Source: Candidatus Eiseniibacteriota bacterium
GTDB lineage: Bacteria > Eisenbacteria > RBG-16-71-46
DNA: 64,000 nt
Direction of reading: 5' to 3'
Assembly: GCA_044222065.1 (NCBI GenBank)
Contig: JBGAOA010000017.1
Coordinates: 1 to 64,000 of the forward strand
Below, piece by piece: positions 45,599 to 55,016 of this stretch (positions within the stretch are counted from its first letter, which is position 1; the number at the start of each line of letters is the position of its first letter). The position numbers and the translations under genes are program-made. The notes beneath the pieces are model-generated. The model worked only from the letters and a program-made list of their open reading frames with translations. It searched no databases and was not told the DNA's origin.

Positions 45599-45627
45599 AC
45601 GCCGCGCGGCGCCACGCCGCGCGGCGT
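45599..45627 (+). terminator. Hairpin after gyrA
   Basis: 12-bp stem ACGCCGCGCGGC/GCCGCGCGGCGT, tail TCGTCGTT. Confidence 0.55.
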
Positions 45628-45641
45628 TCGTCGTTCCTCGC

Positions 45642-45659
45642 TTGTGAAAACATTCACAG
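45642..45659. promoter_or_regulatory. Rex operator
   Basis: TTGTGAA-AACA-TTCACAG, one mismatch from TTGTGAAnnnnTTCACAA, directly upstream of rex. Confidence 0.85.
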
Positions 45660-45691
45660 AGGACGGCGGCCGAAGCGCCGCCGCACGAGGC

Positions 45692-46342
45692 ATGTCGCGC
45701 ATCTCGGAATCCACGGTCCGCCGCCTGTCGCACTACTACCGCGTGCTCGAGGAAGTCGATGTCGAGGGCAAGCGGATGATCTCGTCGCACCGCCTCGCCG
45801 AGCGCGAAGGCGTGACGTCGGCGCAGGTGCGCAAGGACCTGTCGTGCTTCGGCTCGTTCGGCCGCCGCGGGCTCGGTTACAACGTGCAGCACTTGCGCGG
45901 CGAGATCCGCGCGATCCTCGGCCTCGATCGGCGCTGGAAGGTCGGAGTCGTCGGCGCCGGCAACATCGGCGCCGCGCTGCTCGCGTATCGCGGATTCGAG
46001 AAGCAGGGCTTCGACGTGGTCGCCGTGTTCGACAGCGATCCCGAGCGAGTCGGCTCGCTGCTCGGTCCGCACCGCGTGCGCGACGTGGGCGAGCTCCCGG
46101 GTGCGATCGCGGCGGGAGAGGTCGAGATCGGCGTCATCGCGACGCCGCCCGCGGCGGCGCAGGAGGTGGCGGACGCACTCGTCGCCGCCGGCATCAAGGG
46201 CGTCCTGAACTTCGCGCCGCGAAAGCTGTTCGTGCCGAAGGGTATCGCGCTCCGCACCGTCGACATGACGATGGAGTTCGAAACACTGTCGTTCGCGATC
46301 GCCCAGGAGTCCGCGCCGCGCCGCCGGCGCGGGCGCCGCTAG
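45692..46342 (+). CDS. rex: Redox-sensing transcriptional repressor
   Basis: TVRRL..Y, QVRKDLS.FG.FG.RG.GY, VGAGNIG.AL, GIKGVLNFAP. Confidence 0.96.
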   Translation: MSRISESTVRRLSHYYRVLEEVDVEGKRMISSHRLAEREGVTSAQVRKDLSCFGSFGRRGLGYNVQHLRGEIRAILGLDRRWKVGVVGAGNIGAALLAYRGFEKQGFDVVAVFDSDPERVGSLLGPHRVRDVGELPGAIAAGEVEIGVIATPPAAAQEVADALVAAGIKGVLNFAPRKLFVPKGIALRTVDMTMEFETLSFAIAQESAPRRRRGRR

Positions 46343-49356: not shown

Positions 49357-50573
49357 GCGACCTCCGGGTGCGCCCAGCGCGGGACGCGCCGCAGCGAGTG
49401 GATCACGGCGGTGAGCAGCACGATCCAGCCGAGCAGCGGGATCATGAGGCTCGCCGCGACGGCGAGACCGAGCGACAGCGCGTAGAGCCGCTCGGCGTCC
49501 TCGATGCGCGGATGCAGCGTGAGGCCGTAGTTCACGGCGAGCAGTCCGATCGCGAACGTTGCGACGAGCGTCCACGTCGCGAGCACGGCGACGGCCGGCG
49601 CGTGCAGCACGGCGAACGACGGCGCGAGGGCGAGCGTGAGCAGCACGCTCGCGAGCGCGGCCCACGCCGCGCGCGCGCTCCACGCCGTCGAGGGCCGCAG
49701 CGGGAGGGCGCGCGCGACGAGGAACGGATCGGCGGCGGCGAGGGCGAGCAGCCATTCGCCGAAGATCCCGGCCACGACGAGCGCTTCGCCGAGCGCGAGG
49801 AAGTGCACGACCCGCGGCGGCAGCGGCGCGAGCCACACGAGCGGCGTCAGCGCCGCCGCCGCGAGCGCGACGAGGAGCCGCGTGCGTGCGCGTCCGGGAC
49901 GCGTCGAGACGACGAAGTCCTTGCGCATCAGCGCGAGCCACGCGGGCGCGGACGTCCAGCGCGCGGGCGGCGTGCGCCGCTCGCGCCCGCGCCGCGGCGC
50001 CCGCGTCAGCAGCTCGACGAGCGGGTCGCGTCCCCGCACGGCGACGCGCGCGCGTGCGAGGCGCGCTGCGACGGCGCAGGCGAGGCGCGCGCTCTCGATC
50101 AGCAGCCAGACGCAGGCGGCGGCGCCGAGCAGGAGCCACCACGCGGGCAGGAGTCGCACGCCCGCGAGCAGCATCGCGAACGCGGGGACGAGGGCCCAGA
50201 CGGCGTGCGTGGTCGCGAACCACACGAGGTGGCGGTGGATGCGGGAAGCGGGCAGCGGAAGCGCGAGCCACTCGGGGCCCGGGACGTGTCCCGCGAGCGT
50301 CCAGGCGTGCCGGCCGCCGGCGGTGAGGGCACCCGCGAGCGTCACGATCGCGAGCCGGAGCCCGAGGAACGCCGCGCCGCCGCGCAGCCCGTGCGCGCGC
50401 ACTTCGCCGTCGAGGGGCACGCGGGTCTGCCAGAACACGAACGCGCCGACGAGTGCTGCGAGCAGGACGAACTCGAGGCGCAGGACGCCTTCGATCGCGC
50501 CGACGTAGCGGCGCACGAGCTGCCGCTCGAGCGTCGCGAACGCGCGGGCCGGATTCGCGGGGTCGGTGCGCAT
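49353..50573 (-). CDS. Putative ABC exporter permease
   Basis: Multiple TM segments, LALPL, LMRKDF; translationally coupled to the ATPase. Confidence 0.7.
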   Translation of the reverse strand: MRTDPANPARAFATLERQLVRRYVGAIEGVLRLEFVLLAALVGAFVFWQTRVPLDGEVRAHGLRGGAAFLGLRLAIVTLAGALTAGGRHAWTLAGHVPGPEWLALPLPASRIHRHLVWFATTHAVWALVPAFAMLLAGVRLLPAWWLLLGAAACVWLLIESARLACAVAARLARARVAVRGRDPLVELLTRAPRRGRERRTPPARWTSAPAWLALMRKDFVVSTRPGRARTRLLVALAAAALTPLVWLAPLPPRVVHFLALGEALVVAGIFGEWLLALAAADPFLVARALPLRPSTAWSARAAWAALASVLLTLALAPSFAVLHAPAVAVLATWTLVATFAIGLLAVNYGLTLHPRIEDAERLYALSLGLAVAASLMIPLLGWIVLLTAVIHSLRRVPRWAHPEVA

Positions 50574-50634
50574 GGCGGGCGCGGAGTCTATCGCACGCTG
50601 GCCCCGCGCGGCAGCGTTTGGCACCATGCGCCCC

Positions 50635-51552
50635 ATGACCGTCCGTGCGCTCGCCGTCCACGCGCCCGAATACGAATGCGACATCGGGCCCCACCCGTTT
50701 CCGATGGAGAAGTTCCGGCTCCTGCGCGAGCGGCTCCTCGGCTCGGGCGATCTCGCACCCGAGGAGATCGCGGCCGCGCCGGAAGCGACGCGCGCCGAAC
50801 TCGAGCGCGTGCACACGGCGCCCTATCTGGACGACCTCGAGGCGCTGCGCTGGACGCCGCGCACGGCGCGCTCGGAACTGCCGCTCACGGAAGGCATCGC
50901 CCGCGCGTACCGCTACGCCTGCGGCGGCACGATCGTCGCCGCCCGGCTCGCGCTCGCGCACGGCGCCGCAGCGAATCTCGGCGGCGGATTTCACCACGCG
51001 TACGCCGAGCACGGCGAGGGCTTCTGCTACCTGAACGACCTCGCGGTCGCGGCACGCGCGCTGCGCGCCGAGGGCGGCGTGAAGCGCGTGGCGGTCGTGG
51101 ACCTCGACGTGCACCAGGGCAACGGGACCGCGCACGTGTTCGAGTCGGAGCCCGAGGTGTTCACGCTGTCCGTGCACCAGGAGAACAACTACCCGGTGCC
51201 GAAGGAGCGCAGCGACCTCGACGTCGGCCTGCCCGACGGAACCGGGGACGCCGCGTACCTCGAGGCGCTCGATCGCGCGCTCGAAGCCGTGTGGGCGTTC
51301 GCGCCCGAGCTCGTGCTCTACCAGGCCGGCGCCGATCCGTACGCCGACGACCAGCTCGGCGGCCTCGCGCTCACGCTCGCCGGACTCGCGGCGCGCGACG
51401 AGCGCGTGCTGCGCGGCTGCGCGAACCGCGGGGTCCCGGTCGTCGTGACGCTCGGCGGCGGTTACGCGCGCCGCGTCGAGGACACCGTCGCGATCCACGC
51501 CGCGACGTGCCGCCTGGCGTTCGCGATCGCGCGCGCGGGGGCGCGCCGATGA
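50635..51552 (+). CDS. Histone deacetylase-family protein
   Basis: HPFPMEK, GGGFHHA, GFC, DLDVHQGNG, QAGAD, GGGY. Confidence 0.93.
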   Translation: MTVRALAVHAPEYECDIGPHPFPMEKFRLLRERLLGSGDLAPEEIAAAPEATRAELERVHTAPYLDDLEALRWTPRTARSELPLTEGIARAYRYACGGTIVAARLALAHGAAANLGGGFHHAYAEHGEGFCYLNDLAVAARALRAEGGVKRVAVVDLDVHQGNGTAHVFESEPEVFTLSVHQENNYPVPKERSDLDVGLPDGTGDAAYLEALDRALEAVWAFAPELVLYQAGADPYADDQLGGLALTLAGLAARDERVLRGCANRGVPVVVTLGGGYARRVEDTVAIHAATCRLAFAIARAGARR

Positions 51553-52499
51553 TCCGCGCCTGGATCGCGAAGGCTTCGGGATGCCGCGCCGCGGAGGCGG
51601 CGGAAGCGCTCGCGGCGCATCGCGGCGGGGCCGCGGTGTGGATCGACCTCGACTGCGAGGACGAAGCGGCCGCGCGCGGCGTGCTCGAACCGCTCGGCGT
51701 GCACCCGCTCGTGCTCGAGGACATGGTGCTCCAGAGCAACCGGCCCAAGGTGGACAACTACGGCTCGTACCTCTACCTGGTCGTCCACACCGCGCGCTGG
51801 GAGGCCGAGCGCCCCGCGCTCAGGGAGCTGGACCTGGTCATCGGCGAACGCTTCATCGTCACCTACCACGACGGCGAGACGCGCTCCGTCGCGGCCGCGC
51901 GTGAAGTCGTCGCGCGCCGCGCCGAACTGCTGTGGCCGCACCCCGCGAACCTGCTGCACTTCCTGCTCGACGTGCTCGTCGACAACTACCTGCCGATCGC
52001 CGAGCGCATGGCGGACGAACTCGACAAGATCGAGGAGCACCTGCTGGGCGAATCCGAGGGCGATGCGCAGCGGCACGTGCTGCGGCTCAAGCGCGCGATC
52101 GCCTCCCTGCGGCGCATCGTCGGCCCGCAGCGCGACACGGTGCTGGCTCTGACGCGCGACGAGTTCCAGCCGATCCCGGCCGAGATCCGGCCCTACCTGC
52201 GAGACGTCTACGACCGGCTCGCTCGCGTCGGCGACCTGCTGGAATCGTTCCGCGACGAGACCGCCTCGCTGCTCGAACTGCACGTCTCGATCACGTCGAA
52301 TCGCCTGAACGAGGTGATCAAGCGGCTCACGGTGATCGCGACGATCGGGCTGCCGCTCACGGTCGTCACGAGCTACTACGGCATGAACTTCCGTCTGCCG
52401 GAGTACGAGTGGGCGCACTCGGAGTGGTTCGCGGTCGCCCTGCTCGTGGCGACGGGGGCGGCGACCTGGGGATTCCTACGCTGGAAGAAGTGGCTGTAG
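51549..52499 (+). CDS. corA: CorA-family Mg2+/Co2+ transporter
   Basis: WIDL, HPL..ED, RPKVD.Y, YLRDVYD, YGMNF signature. Confidence 0.93.
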   Translation: MIRAWIAKASGCRAAEAAEALAAHRGGAAVWIDLDCEDEAAARGVLEPLGVHPLVLEDMVLQSNRPKVDNYGSYLYLVVHTARWEAERPALRELDLVIGERFIVTYHDGETRSVAAAREVVARRAELLWPHPANLLHFLLDVLVDNYLPIAERMADELDKIEEHLLGESEGDAQRHVLRLKRAIASLRRIVGPQRDTVLALTRDEFQPIPAEIRPYLRDVYDRLARVGDLLESFRDETASLLELHVSITSNRLNEVIKRLTVIATIGLPLTVVTSYYGMNFRLPEYEWAHSEWFAVALLVATGAATWGFLRWKKWL

Positions 52500-52502
52500 G
52501 AA

Positions 52503-52768
52503 TGCGGAGAAGGTCGCTCACCGCGTCGCGTCTTGGACTGCCTTAGTGGAGGAGGGGGCGACACTCCACGACACGCATGACGTCATCACCCTCGGGCGGG
52601 GCGATTCACGTGTCTTGCGACTTTCCTCCCCGCGAGGCCCTCGCGTCGTCCGGCTCACCTCGCTCGTGAAAATCCGAACGTCGCTCGGAACGGGCCACGT
52701 GCAGCGTACGCGACCCCGGGGTTGGGAAACGAAAGCTCCCTGCCAAGGAGATCTTTCTGCCCAGCCGC
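52503..52768 (-). ncRNA. Candidate unannotated structured ncRNA (~265 nt)
   Basis: Own promoter-like element TTGACA-N17-GACACT; at least eight helices, with G-U pairs favouring the minus strand; no credible ORF. Confidence 0.55.
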
Positions 52769-52774
52769 AACGGG

Positions 52775-52803
52775 AGTGTCGTGCCGGGTCCGAGGCCTGT
52801 CAA
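52775..52803 (-). promoter_or_regulatory. sigma70-type promoter for candidate ncRNA
   Basis: TTGACA (52798-803)-N17-GACACT (52775-80). Confidence 0.6.
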
Positions 52804-52831
52804 GACTCGTTCGTCCGAAGCTCGCGCGCTG

Positions 52832-54013
52832 CTAGAACTCCTGCCACAGCGTGCGCATCTCGGGGTCCTTCGGACCGCCGATCACTTCGAGCTTCGCGTC
52901 GTCGTAGTGGACGACTCCCGTCGCGGGCGCGTCGTACGCGAGCCAGACCCACACCATGTAGGTGTCGGGCGGCACGTCCATCTCGAGGGTCGTCTTCGAC
53001 CAGCCGGTCGTCGCTCCGAACTGTTCGCCCTGCGGCACCTGCGCGACGCCGCGCGGCGTGTGGCAGTAGATCTTCGTGTACGTGCTGCTGCGAAGACTGT
53101 CGGTGCGAACCCACGCGGTAAGACGCACGCGCTTGCCGGCGAGCGCGCGGTTCGCGATTCCCTGGCAGATGCCGGTGCGCGACGTCACGTAATCGCCCGC
53201 GCCGCTCTCCATGCGAACGGACTTGCGCCCGTCGTGCGCCGCGGTCGAATCGGACTCGATGCGCATTCCCGGATACGGCGCCATCGAGATCTCCCAGCCC
53301 TGCGTGCCGGATTCGAACCCGCCGTTCGCGAGCAGGTTCTCGCCCGCCCTCGGCGCCTTCGCGGGCCGGGCGGGTTCGAGCGTCACCGAGGCATCGTCGA
53401 GCAGCACCTGGCCGGTGCCGAAGAGGCCGACGCGCACGAACACGACGTTCGTGGTCGGCGGGATGAAGATGCGGACCTCGCGCCGCACCCAGTCGGTTTC
53501 CTGCTCGTCGAACGTGCGGCGTTCCCAGCCGAGCAGCATCGCCGGGTCGGCGCGGCCGGGCAGTCGCAGCAGGTTTGCCGCGCTGTCGCGCGGCACGTTC
53601 CACGTGCCGGCCATCTTGGAGATCGTGTCGCGGTAGGCCTGGGCAAGCAGGTACGCGCGGCCCGTGAGGCCGTTGCTTCGCGTCCACACCGAGAACACGA
53701 GGTCCTTGCCCCACATCTCGCGCGTGACGAGCAGGCGCTGGCTCCAGTTGTGCGCCATATAGAGGAGCGTGCTCACGTTCGCGACGTCGGCGCTGTAACG
53801 CCCGCCGTGCGCGAGCAGCGTGTCACGGCCGAAGAACACGGACGGCAGTCCGGACACCGAGGTGTCCCACGACGCGGGCATCCAGGGATGACCGACCACG
53901 CCGTCTTCGAATCCCGGGTTCGCGAGCAGGTTCCGCGGCGGGGCCGCCGAAGCGGGAAGGGCGAAGCACGCGAGTGCGCACAGCAGCACGAATCGAAGCC
54001 GCAGCAAGGTCAT
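52832..54013 (-). CDS. Secreted protein with two tandem CBM4/9-like (galactose-binding-like) domains
   Basis: Signal peptide; repeated NLLAN(P/G)GFE...W...AH.G..S...W...G.V..DDA units. Confidence 0.7.
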   Translation of the reverse strand: MTLLRLRFVLLCALACFALPASAAPPRNLLANPGFEDGVVGHPWMPASWDTSVSGLPSVFFGRDTLLAHGGRYSADVANVSTLLYMAHNWSQRLLVTREMWGKDLVFSVWTRSNGLTGRAYLLAQAYRDTISKMAGTWNVPRDSAANLLRLPGRADPAMLLGWERRTFDEQETDWVRREVRIFIPPTTNVVFVRVGLFGTGQVLLDDASVTLEPARPAKAPRAGENLLANGGFESGTQGWEISMAPYPGMRIESDSTAAHDGRKSVRMESGAGDYVTSRTGICQGIANRALAGKRVRLTAWVRTDSLRSSTYTKIYCHTPRGVAQVPQGEQFGATTGWSKTTLEMDVPPDTYMVWVWLAYDAPATGVVHYDDAKLEVIGGPKDPEMRTLWQEF

Positions 54014-54064
54014 GCAGGTCCTCGGAAGGTCGTCGGAGGCTCGACAACGTACAGGGGGGCGGTG

Positions 54065-54094
54065 ATTATCCGGAGCCGCGCGCGCGAGGGTCAA
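54065..54094 (-). promoter_or_regulatory. Putative promoter
   Basis: TTGACC-N18-GATAAT. Confidence 0.45.
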
Positions 54095-54176
54095 GCGCGA
54101 ACGCGTGCAGCGACGCCGCGTGGCGCCGCGATCCGGTTCAGACTTGGCAAATCCTCGTGCGGCGAACGGAGGCTCC

Positions 54177-55016
54177 CTGTCCGACTGGCTCTTCACCTCC
54201 GACCTCCACGGGCAGACGGCGCTCTACGAACAGCTGCTCGCGCTCGTCGCGACGCGCAGGCCGCGCGCGCTGATCCTCGGCGGAGACCTCGCGCCGCACG
54301 AATCGGGTCCGGCCGGCGTGCGACGGCAGGCCGTGTTCTTCGACGGGTTCCTCGTCGAGTTCGCTCGCCGCGTGCGCGAGGCGTCGAGGGACACCGCGCT
54401 CGCGCTGCTGATGGGGAACGACGACTGGGCGGCGAACGAGCCGCGGCTCGCGGACGCGCCGGACGGATTGTGGCGCTACCTGCACGACCGCGTGATCGAG
54501 ATCGACGGCGTGACGGTTGCGGGGACCTCGTGGGTGCCCATCACGCCGTTCGGCATGAAGGACTGGGAGCGCTGGGAGGACGGCGGCGACGAGTCGCCGC
54601 CGCGGCTCGCCGGCTGGCGCAGCGGGCCCGAAGGCCTGCGCGAGTTCGCGTTCGACCCCGCGTCGAAGTCGCCGACGATCGCCGAGGCGCTCGAGCCGCT
54701 CGGCCGCGCGCTCGAGCGCGCGCCGCGGGCGATCGTCGTGTCGCACGGACCGCCGCTCGGCACGCAGTGCGATGTCGTCGGGTCGGGAACGCACGTCGGC
54801 TCGCGTGCGCTGCGGCGCTTCGTCGAGCGCCACGCGCCGGCGCTCGTCCTGAGCGGGCACATCCACGAATCACCGCGCGTCACGAACGCATTCCGCGATC
54901 GCATCGGCGACACCGCGATCGTGAACCCGGGGCAGTTCGGGACGTCGCGGCTGTGCGCCGTGTGGTTCGATCCGCGCGACGCCGCCGGCACGCTGCGCCA
55001 CACGGTGTGGGGCTGA
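54177..55016 (+). CDS. Metallophosphoesterase (start CTG 54177 or TTG 54144)
   Basis: SDLHG, GGDL, GNDD, SHGPP, GHIHE, NPG. Confidence 0.88.
   Translation: MSDWLFTSDLHGQTALYEQLLALVATRRPRALILGGDLAPHESGPAGVRRQAVFFDGFLVEFARRVREASRDTALALLMGNDDWAANEPRLADAPDGLWRYLHDRVIEIDGVTVAGTSWVPITPFGMKDWERWEDGGDESPPRLAGWRSGPEGLREFAFDPASKSPTIAEALEPLGRALERAPRAIVVSHGPPLGTQCDVVGSGTHVGSRALRRFVERHAPALVLSGHIHESPRVTNAFRDRIGDTAIVNPGQFGTSRLCAVWFDPRDAAGTLRHTVWG

Follow-up and report, generated by a model that had tools for sequence, protein, structure and literature searches.

A candidate new family of structured RNA with its own predicted promoter in Candidatus Eisenbacteria

The stretch analyzed here comprises positions 1 to 64,000 of contig JBGAOA010000017.1 of a Candidatus Eisenbacteria genome (assembly GCA_044222065.1), and we refer to this whole stretch of 64,000 nucleotides (nt), which has a G+C content of ~68%, as the window. 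In a gap between two convergent genes, the window contains on its minus strand a 229-nt element (52542-52770) that is very probably a real, new and independently transcribed structured RNA. The best explanation overall, which we consider on balance probable, is that this RNA belongs to an uncatalogued family of trans-acting structured RNAs that bind a protein or a ligand. A preliminary description made from the sequence alone had proposed a novel standalone non-coding RNA (ncRNA) at this locus. That proposal agrees with the homologues and their covariation, with a conserved promoter, with the absence of an Rfam match and with contigs from RNA libraries.

Results

The RNA is conserved in two sister families

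A DNA search of 60 related genomes gave matches in 31 of the 36 genomes of the same family, which belong to many genera and show 69-93% identity. In an alignment of 20 homologues, an invariant TTGAC box is followed by a variable spacer and then by a conserved block of ~230 nt, in which the loops are fixed and the stems contain compensatory substitutions. Covariance model R1 delimits this block in the window as follows.

52542-52770, minus strand: conserved core of the structured RNA, 229 nt; full-length hit of model R1 (173.6 bits, E 1.1e-50)

The window copy scores lower than most members of the family, which reach about 200 bits. A second hit of the model in the window (45601-45703, 19.2 bits) was treated as noise, and both the DNA search and the covariance model found a single copy of the RNA in the genome.

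Model R1 detected the RNA at full length in 82 of the 89 genomes of the window's family (f1), and in 42 of the 44 family genomes that are at least 90% complete. All genomes with a hit have one copy except metagenome-assembled genome (MAG) G026, which has two near-identical copies on contigs C301 and C136 (L167 and L169); a strain duplication in this bin, whose contamination is 4%, is more likely than a true second gene. We also screened a class sample of 151 genomes, which equals the whole phylum as sampled. Model R1 had hits in 56 of 58 genomes of f1, 5 of 6 of the sister family f3 and none of the 3 of family f2, and elsewhere in the 151 genomes it gave only partial noise of 19-20 bits. The second model, R2, which includes f3 sequences, gave nearly the same picture (f1 56/59, f3 5/6, f2 0/3), with only partial hits of 16-18 bits elsewhere in the phylum. 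When run with its filters off on six loci with matches to the deacetylase gene that neighbors the RNA (in the three f2 genomes and in G044, the f3 genome without an RNA hit), R2 detected nothing above 10.3 bits; a fifth genome queried, G018, had no deacetylase match and contributes no locus. The f3 genome G038, which has a hit, is flagged as unpublished, and row L125 of alignment A3 and model R2 is probably the same record; no statement made here rests solely on G038.

A diagnostic pattern was searched for in one genome per species (185,579 species) and occurred in 88 stretches. The model was applied to 80 of these: 67 were true hits, and 13 were chance matches in unrelated phyla. The titles of the true hits mostly name Candidatus Eisenbacteria MAGs and in many cases read 'bacterium' or 'uncultured bacterium'; four have other phylum labels. 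These four (L094, L098, L117 and L143, titled Methylomirabilota, Limnocylindria, Acidiferrales and Verrucomicrobiia, respectively) are full-length copies scoring 146-193 bits, like those of f1, and their taxonomic labels may be wrong. The pattern had 0 matches in viral contigs; together with the single copy in the genome, this led us to reject an RNA of a mobile element or phage. As sampled, the RNA is confined to two sister families of Candidatus Eisenbacteria, and within this clade it is single-copy and vertically inherited.

The fold is supported by covariation

RNAalifold applied to 19 sequences aligned with MAFFT yielded 51 base pairs, 34 of which show compensatory changes. In a model-fitted alignment of 67 sequences, 94.0% of the cells in the 51 modelled pairs form standard pairs, compared with 43-50% when the 3' partners were slid by 1-3 columns as a control. 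Compensatory double changes were present in 37 of the 51 pairs in this alignment, and none of 500 column shuffles reached any of the observed measures. The independent MAFFT/RNAalifold run and the model-fitted alignment gave the same helices. The modelled pairs contain 288 G-U cells and 59 A-C cells. G-U cells are thus far above A-C cells, which identifies the minus strand as the folded strand, the strand that the preliminary description had favored for its G-U pairs. No reading frame is kept open in the homologues and their lengths change by single nucleotides, the P5 region for instance varying from 55 to 65 nt; this continuous length variation and the lack of a conserved frame argue that the locus is not coding.

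In the overall fold, helix P1 encloses two three-way junctions (P1/P2/P3 and P3/P4/P5) and is followed by a P6-P7 domain and then by P8. The elements are located in the window as follows.

52763-52768, minus strand: P1 5' strand, GCGGCU, pairs with 52617-52622
52617-52622, minus strand: P1 3' strand, AGUCGC, pairs with 52763-52768
52758-52762, minus strand: J1/2, GGGCA, near-invariant; possible tertiary contact with the GCCC loop (52594-52597)
52731-52757, minus strand: P2 hairpin, GAAAG-AU-CUCCUUGGCAGGGAG-CUUUC, with a near-invariant tip
52725-52727 and 52717-52720, minus strand: P3 5' strands, pair with 52623-52632
52623-52632, minus strand: P3 3' strands
52692-52716, minus strand: P4 hairpin, loop ACGCUGC (52701-52707) with invariant CGCUGC
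52637-52691, minus strand: P5, long and irregular hairpin; stem variable, tip UCAC-GAGCGAG-GUGA invariant, loop at 52659-52665
52570-52614, minus strand: P6-P7 domain, loop with invariant GCCC (52594-52597)
52608-52614 / 52570-52576, minus strand: P6, seven pairs, all with compensatory changes
52600-52605 / 52585-52590, minus strand: P7, six pairs, five with compensatory changes
52546-52569, minus strand: P8, terminal hairpin GUGGAG..CUCCAC; loop C-rich, form in the family RGGGG-CCCCC-CCUCY

The support is strong for most helices. The six pairs of P1 are formed in 99.8% of cells and three of them show compensatory changes; the corresponding values are 96% and five for the eleven pairs of P2, and 96.3% and eight for the nine pairs of P4. 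The two segments of P3 are paired in 90.5% and 92.1% of cells; all four inner pairs have compensatory changes, and support for the outer three is weak. In 66 of 67 homologues, the P5 region has a single hairpin as its minimum-energy fold, and its four basal pairs all show compensatory changes. One homologue (L018 1541-1813, identical to L155) has an extra hairpin of ~45 nt on the 3' side of P5, indicating that insertions are tolerated there. Between P7 and P6, the window (J7/6, 52579-52586) lacks the well-conserved CCCUCUCG and reads GACGUCAUG. The models did not include P8. In an anchored analysis, it had a stem of at least 6 base pairs (bp) in 52 of 85 distinct homologues versus 20% of shuffles; its outer pairs differ in type (AU/UA/GC/GU), its inner stem RGGG/CCUC is conserved, and its loop is all-C in 46 of the 85. 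The sister family lacks a canonical P8.

About half of the fold previously drawn by hand is retained. The core of its long 5' hairpin corresponds to P2, its arm GGUCGCGU/ACGUGGCC to P4, and its pairings GACACGU/GCGUGUC and AUCGCCC/GGGUGAU to P6 and P7, all conserved with covariation; UUCAC/GUGAG is the tip of P5, conserved in the homologues, and GUGGAG/CUCCAC is P8, conserved with the variation in its outer pairs just mentioned. Other parts had to be abandoned. Where a four-way junction had been drawn, with CCGG/CCGG closing it and UCCGAGC/GUUCGGA as an arm, the stretch forms the single hairpin P5 in 66 of 67 homologues. The 3' half (52504-52520) of the proposed closing stem GCGGGGAGG..GUCGC/GCGAC..CUUCUCCGC is located outside the conserved RNA, and GUCGC pairs instead with the 5' end to form P1, with compensatory changes. 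The sequence of the CUUGG/CCAAG pseudoknot is not conserved, and the outer UGGG/CCCA extension of the 5' hairpin pairs in 63.5% of cells. A GGG/CCC extension of the same hairpin, shifted in register by one base, is pairable in 94% of cells without covariation, and would compete with P3 and with the contact between J1/2 and the P7 loop (L7).

In contrast to the covarying stems, several loops and junctions (GGGCA, UUGGCA, CGCUGC, GAGCGAG, GCCC and CCCCC) are near-invariant. Two candidate tertiary contacts involve such bases. GGGC of J1/2 and GCCC of the P7 loop could pair in 98.8% of cells; neither side varies and there is no covariation. The same holds for covariation of a kissing contact between (U)CGCU of the P4 loop and AGCG(A) of the P5 loop, pairable in 94.7% of cells. 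The GCAG/CUGC loop contact suggested before, which also consists of invariant bases, is possible.

A conserved predicted promoter precedes the RNA

Upstream of the core, the minus strand contains the TTGACA-N17-GACACT element from which the preliminary description had started, with a start (+1) near 52768.

52798-52803, minus strand: -35 box TTGACA, read directly from the sequence
52775-52780, minus strand: -10 box GACACT, after a 17-nt spacer; family consensus cAnAcT

The element is conserved. TTGAC[A/G/T] is located 32-37 nt before the start of the RNA model in 85 of 85 distinct homologues. The -10 hexamer, which was picked as the best among spacers of 16-18 nt, a choice that favors the fit somewhat, carries A and T at positions 2 and 6, respectively, in 85/85 and A at position 4 in 74/85. 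Thus, all 85 homologues contain a TTGACA-like -35 box, a 16-18-nt spacer and a -10 box with A2 and T6, the arrangement of a sigma-70-type promoter. We assign this predicted, conserved promoter to the RNA itself; it places the predicted start of the RNA near 52768-52770. A generic promoter scan missed the site, whose -10 box matches TATAAT at only 3 of 6 bases, and the sole terminator-like hit of that scan is the tip of P2. TTGAC is absent within 70 nt of the 6S, RNase P, transfer-messenger RNA (tmRNA) and signal recognition particle (SRP) RNA genes of this genome, and their promoters are thus not comparable.

The RNA matches no known family

The claim that the RNA matches no known family was confirmed with Rfam 15 (4227 models). 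At gathering thresholds there was no hit in the whole 64-kb window. At E values up to 10, the region 52300-53000 gave two chance hits only, both outside the RNA, and 15 of 16 homologous loci gave no overlap with it; the only overlap, in L020, is an 18.4-bit chance match of a microRNA family at the 3' end of the RNA. Several housekeeping RNAs were rejected as identities. The RF00013 (6S RNA) hit of this genome is located on contig 26 (63.9 bits), there is no RF00013 match at the locus, and the fold is branched. SRP RNA, RNase P RNA and tmRNA (RF00169, RF00010 and RF00023) each score above threshold on other contigs (C80, C120 and C98).

A literature search pairing Eisenbacteria with structured RNA, ncRNA or riboswitch found nothing, the supplements of RNA-discovery papers being outside its scope; neither did it turn up a cultured representative or work on the RNA biology of Eisenbacteria. 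Among the recent RNA-discovery papers listed by a broader search, none names Eisenbacteria in its title or the start of its abstract, the portions covered, and supplementary motif lists could hold the motif. Judged by these sequence comparisons, the RNA family is new: it has no detectable relative, and no evidence of homology links it to orphan RNAs such as raiA.

We also considered RNA-binding proteins. Neither Hfq nor Ro/TROVE was detected in the genome, which is 94% complete, and CsrA is encoded. An RNA that sequesters CsrA in the manner of CsrB/RsmZ could make use of the few conserved stretches bearing GGA (CAGGGAG, GGGAAGGGAG and GGAGG in P8). The GGA motifs are few, however, are mostly within stems and are not repeated in hairpin loops, unlike those of a CsrB/Rsm sponge, and CsrA is present regardless of the RNA, in 132 of the 151 phylum genomes, including families without it (f2 3/3, f11 30/32). 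We consider such a sponge highly improbable.

RNA libraries contain contigs of the locus

The locus was matched in 14 DNA runs and 6 metatranscriptome runs, which derive from samples of sludge, bioreactors, wastewater and biofilm. Four of the RNA runs, belonging to three studies, supplied contigs that were aligned to it. In run X19, one contig of 220 nt covers 52540-52759 (depth 29.7) and another one covers the upstream gene (depth 2.6). The contigs of runs X16 and X18 extend over 52453-52754 (depth 15.4) and 52455-52753 (depth 145), respectively, with an Illumina adapter joined after 52753 in X18, and run X15 has a contig at 52435-52821 (depth 7.4) beside an upstream-gene contig of depth 3.4. 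The body of corA at 52200-52434 had no contig in any of the four runs, which we do not take as silence. Short contigs confined to the RNA and deeper than those of its neighbor are as expected of an abundant discrete transcript; expression of the RNA is plausible.

In two studies, the contigs stop at 52753/52754, within P2 and ~15 nt short of the predicted start. Complementary DNA (cDNA) libraries commonly lack the first 10-20 nt as an artefact, and these ends probably reflect a lost cDNA 5' end rather than a processing site. They might instead mark the cleavage site of a ribozyme, self-cleaving or otherwise catalytic, the other option named in the preliminary description, which would also fit the concentration of invariant nucleotides in junctions and loops between covarying stems. 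However, the distance from the start is that of the artefact, the X19 contig passes through to 52759, and Rfam matched none of the known self-cleaving ribozyme classes at the locus in the window or the 16 homologous loci. Catalysis therefore appears very improbable.

At the 3' side, the contigs end at ~52540 in one study and at ~52454, ~45 nt antisense into corA, in the two others, which gives a weak hint of a heterogeneous 3' end. The length of ~265 nt estimated previously is uncertain, as the conserved core amounts to 229 nt and the contig ends differ between studies. The region beyond the core has the following features.

52454-52541, minus strand: non-conserved 3' extension, present in RNA-library contigs; there is no conservation beyond the core
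52504-52524, minus strand: weaker terminator-like hairpin, within the non-conserved extension
52472-52479 / 52496-52503: 8-bp perfect inverted repeat ATTCCTAC / GTAGGAAT with a 16-nt loop, spanning the corA stop codon

P8 itself does not have the makeup of an intrinsic terminator, as the hairpin is present but U makes up only 24% of the 8 nt that follow (158 of 649 bases). In several homologues, P8 is succeeded within a few to 40 nt by a terminator hairpin of its own, of canonical form. In the window, the inverted repeat at the corA stop may be a bidirectional terminator common to corA and the RNA. The contigs of two RNA studies pass through this repeat.

The neighboring genes vary

As had been described, the RNA is located in a gap between convergent genes, which extends over 332 nt (52500-52831) from corA to the open reading frame (ORF) of a CBM_4_9-like protein.

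50566-51552, plus strand: Hist_deacetyl-family gene, domain identified in homologues
51546-52499, plus strand: corA (Pfam CorA, E 1.3e-57), convergent with the RNA gene
52832-54196, minus strand: gene of a secreted CBM_4_9-like protein of 454 amino acids (aa), upstream of the RNA on the same strand

The deacetylase gene and corA overlap by 7 nt and have the appearance of one operon (50566-52499, plus strand) with corA as its last gene. The CBM_4_9 domain of the 454-aa product is borderline and its N-terminus is signal-like.

Of 63 loci, 58 have a homologue of the CBM-like gene upstream of the RNA in the same orientation; it is found in none of the four loci of the sister family and is replaced in one f1 locus. 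On the other side, a convergent corA (at least 270 aa aligned) follows in 36 of the 63 loci and partial corA matches occur in 7 more. The remaining 20 loci have no corA match: 12 of them have the convergent Hist_deacetyl gene facing the RNA directly, two stop at a contig edge, and six, all of one genus (L045, L049, L051, L059, L004 and L076), have a same-strand POT/PTR2 peptide transporter gene inserted between the RNA and its usual convergent neighbor, starting 180-260 nt after the RNA. The distance from the end of the RNA model to the corA stop varies from 8 to 211 nt. Hence, corA is dispensable at the locus, being gone in about a third of the genomes, and in both families the RNA keeps its position next to the deacetylase(-corA) unit, at the 3' end of the latter. 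Because its neighbors change on either side, the RNA depends on neither corA nor the upstream gene.

Cis-acting riboswitches and leaders are, in most representatives, followed immediately by a gene on the same strand; the RNA does not fit this arrangement, since at least 48 of the 63 loci have a convergent gene in that place. The lack of a same-strand downstream gene at most loci favors a trans-acting RNA. A different kind of sensor can be envisaged, in which the 5' domain closed by P1 would bind a metabolite or ion and thereby gate a stop after P8 versus antisense read-through into deacetylase-corA; precedents exist for riboswitch-controlled antisense RNAs. With its multiple junctions and their invariant nucleotides, this domain resembles an aptamer. 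The convergent corA or deacetylase gene is retained even in the sister family, which has another upstream gene, the corA stop is close to the model end, P8 lacks a U tract, and the contigs that reach into corA come from two studies while that of the third stops right after P8. Several observations speak against such a sensor: six loci continue into the POT transporter gene instead, corA is dispensable, contig ends are unreliable, no Rfam riboswitch family matches (the M-box included), and an alternative anti-terminator pairing was not found, although no dedicated test for one was made. We regard this sensor as improbable.

Discussion

We have described a locus of Candidatus Eisenbacteria at which a conserved predicted promoter is followed by ~230 nt with extensive covariation. 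The stems of this RNA vary, its unpaired nucleotides are invariant and tertiary contacts between them are possible, a pattern seen in RNAs that function through their three-dimensional shape. As to mechanism, we tentatively propose that the RNA acts in trans by binding a protein or a small ligand, an idea we find plausible although short of probable. The RNA would act as a compactly folded molecule, in which the kissing of the P4 and P5 loops (L4-L5) and the GGGC/GCCC contact between J1/2 and L7 would lock the two domains together. The invariant unpaired nucleotides would then form a specific binding surface for the protein or ligand, in a mode akin to that of raiA, 6S and other orphan RNAs of the housekeeping type, and further contacts, with G-rich sequences, may be made by the C-rich P7 and P8 loops.

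These C-rich loops might also be the essential part. In a base-pairing regulatory small RNA (sRNA), the CCCCC loop of P8 and the GCCC loop of P7 would pair with G-rich, Shine-Dalgarno-like sites of mRNAs, and the rest of the molecule would serve as scaffold or stabilizer. The all-C loops of P8 in just over half of the homologues and its conserved inner stem fit this idea, as do the invariant GCCC, the RNA's own promoter mostly without a same-strand downstream gene, and the restriction to one clade, which is typical of sRNAs. With 229 nt, eight covarying helices and numerous invariant nucleotides in its junctions, however, the RNA greatly exceeds in complexity the known sRNAs made of a seed and a terminator; moreover, the sister family has no canonical P8 and Hfq was not found. 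A simple base-pairing sRNA is less likely than a binder of protein or ligand, and we judge it unlikely.

Several points weigh against a trans-acting structured RNA, or against parts of that view. No partner protein was identified: beyond the lack of Hfq and TROVE, CsrA is not co-distributed with the RNA. The synteny with the convergent deacetylase-corA pair is near-universal, which would also be compatible with an action in cis or as antisense RNA. Covariation lends no support to the proposed tertiary contacts, whose bases are invariant, and the covariation counts were made in the model-fitted alignment, which leans towards structure. The contigs give no strand, level or true ends, and DNA carry-over is uncontrolled by a silent stretch; the X15 contig spans the promoter, so that it may stem from DNA or from transcripts that began at the upstream gene and read through. 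Finally, the folding energy of the single sequence is no better than that of dinucleotide shuffles (z = -0.70 for the minus strand and 0.06 for the plus strand), an outcome that the preliminary description had listed beforehand as counting against its proposal. At a G+C content of 65%, this energy test is uninformative, and the covariation outweighs its null result.

The same energy value, together with a 65-codon ORF (52606-52803) that overlaps the locus, could be taken to mean that there is no functional RNA at all, but a coding sequence, a DNA-level element such as a terminator region or a repeat, or a structure due to chance. Yet most modelled pairs show compensatory changes, insertions and deletions of all lengths occur without a conserved frame, the element is present in single copy, and the conserved promoter is located outside the structure. 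We consider this explanation extremely improbable.

Bacterial RNAs that combine a complex, covarying fold with invariant junctions have time and again proved to be riboswitches, ribozymes or cores of ribonucleoproteins (RNPs), and the orphan classes raiA, OLE and ROOL are active research targets. The RNA may even constitute a new class with an activity of its own, specific to this phylum and abundant in activated sludge, either as a trans ligand sensor that gates antisense read-through or as a new ribozyme or RNP core, although we rate this as rather unlikely. With ~230 nt, it is short enough for in vitro probing, ligand screens and cryo-electron microscopy. Alignment A3 and model R2 define it well enough for an Rfam entry and for metagenome annotation.

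Returning to the trans-acting structured RNA that we favor, its features can be compared with those of four known systems. The M-box (ykoK) is likewise a structured RNA of 150-200 nt that adjoins a Mg2+ transporter gene. The corA gene next to the Eisenbacteria RNA, however, is convergent instead of downstream on the same strand and is absent from about a third of the loci, and Rfam gave no match to the M-box at the locus.

In sRNAs of the RsaE/RoxS type, conserved C-rich loops pair with G-rich ribosome-binding sites, and the Eisenbacteria RNA also has conserved C-rich hairpin loops able to pair with G-rich sites. It differs in being more than twice as long, in having a large covarying 5' domain and in missing the canonical terminator U tract after P8, and no homology between the two was detected.

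The general character of 6S RNA is closer: both RNAs are ~200 nt long, stand-alone, encoded once per genome and vertically inherited, and the Eisenbacteria RNA may share the abundance of 6S RNA. Their shapes are different, since 6S RNA is a rod with a central bubble whereas the Eisenbacteria RNA is branched, with two three-way junctions.

The raiA motif RNA is an orphan structured ncRNA of Bacillota and Actinomycetota (PMC10861870, PMC12968392, PMC11706538). The Eisenbacteria RNA occurs in another phylum and in only two families, a much narrower distribution; its helix plan differs, and raiA gave no Rfam match at the locus at E values up to 10. Nevertheless, the two have much in common: a length of ~200 nt, their own transcription, probably abundance, and a fold of multiple helices with invariant junctions and loops.

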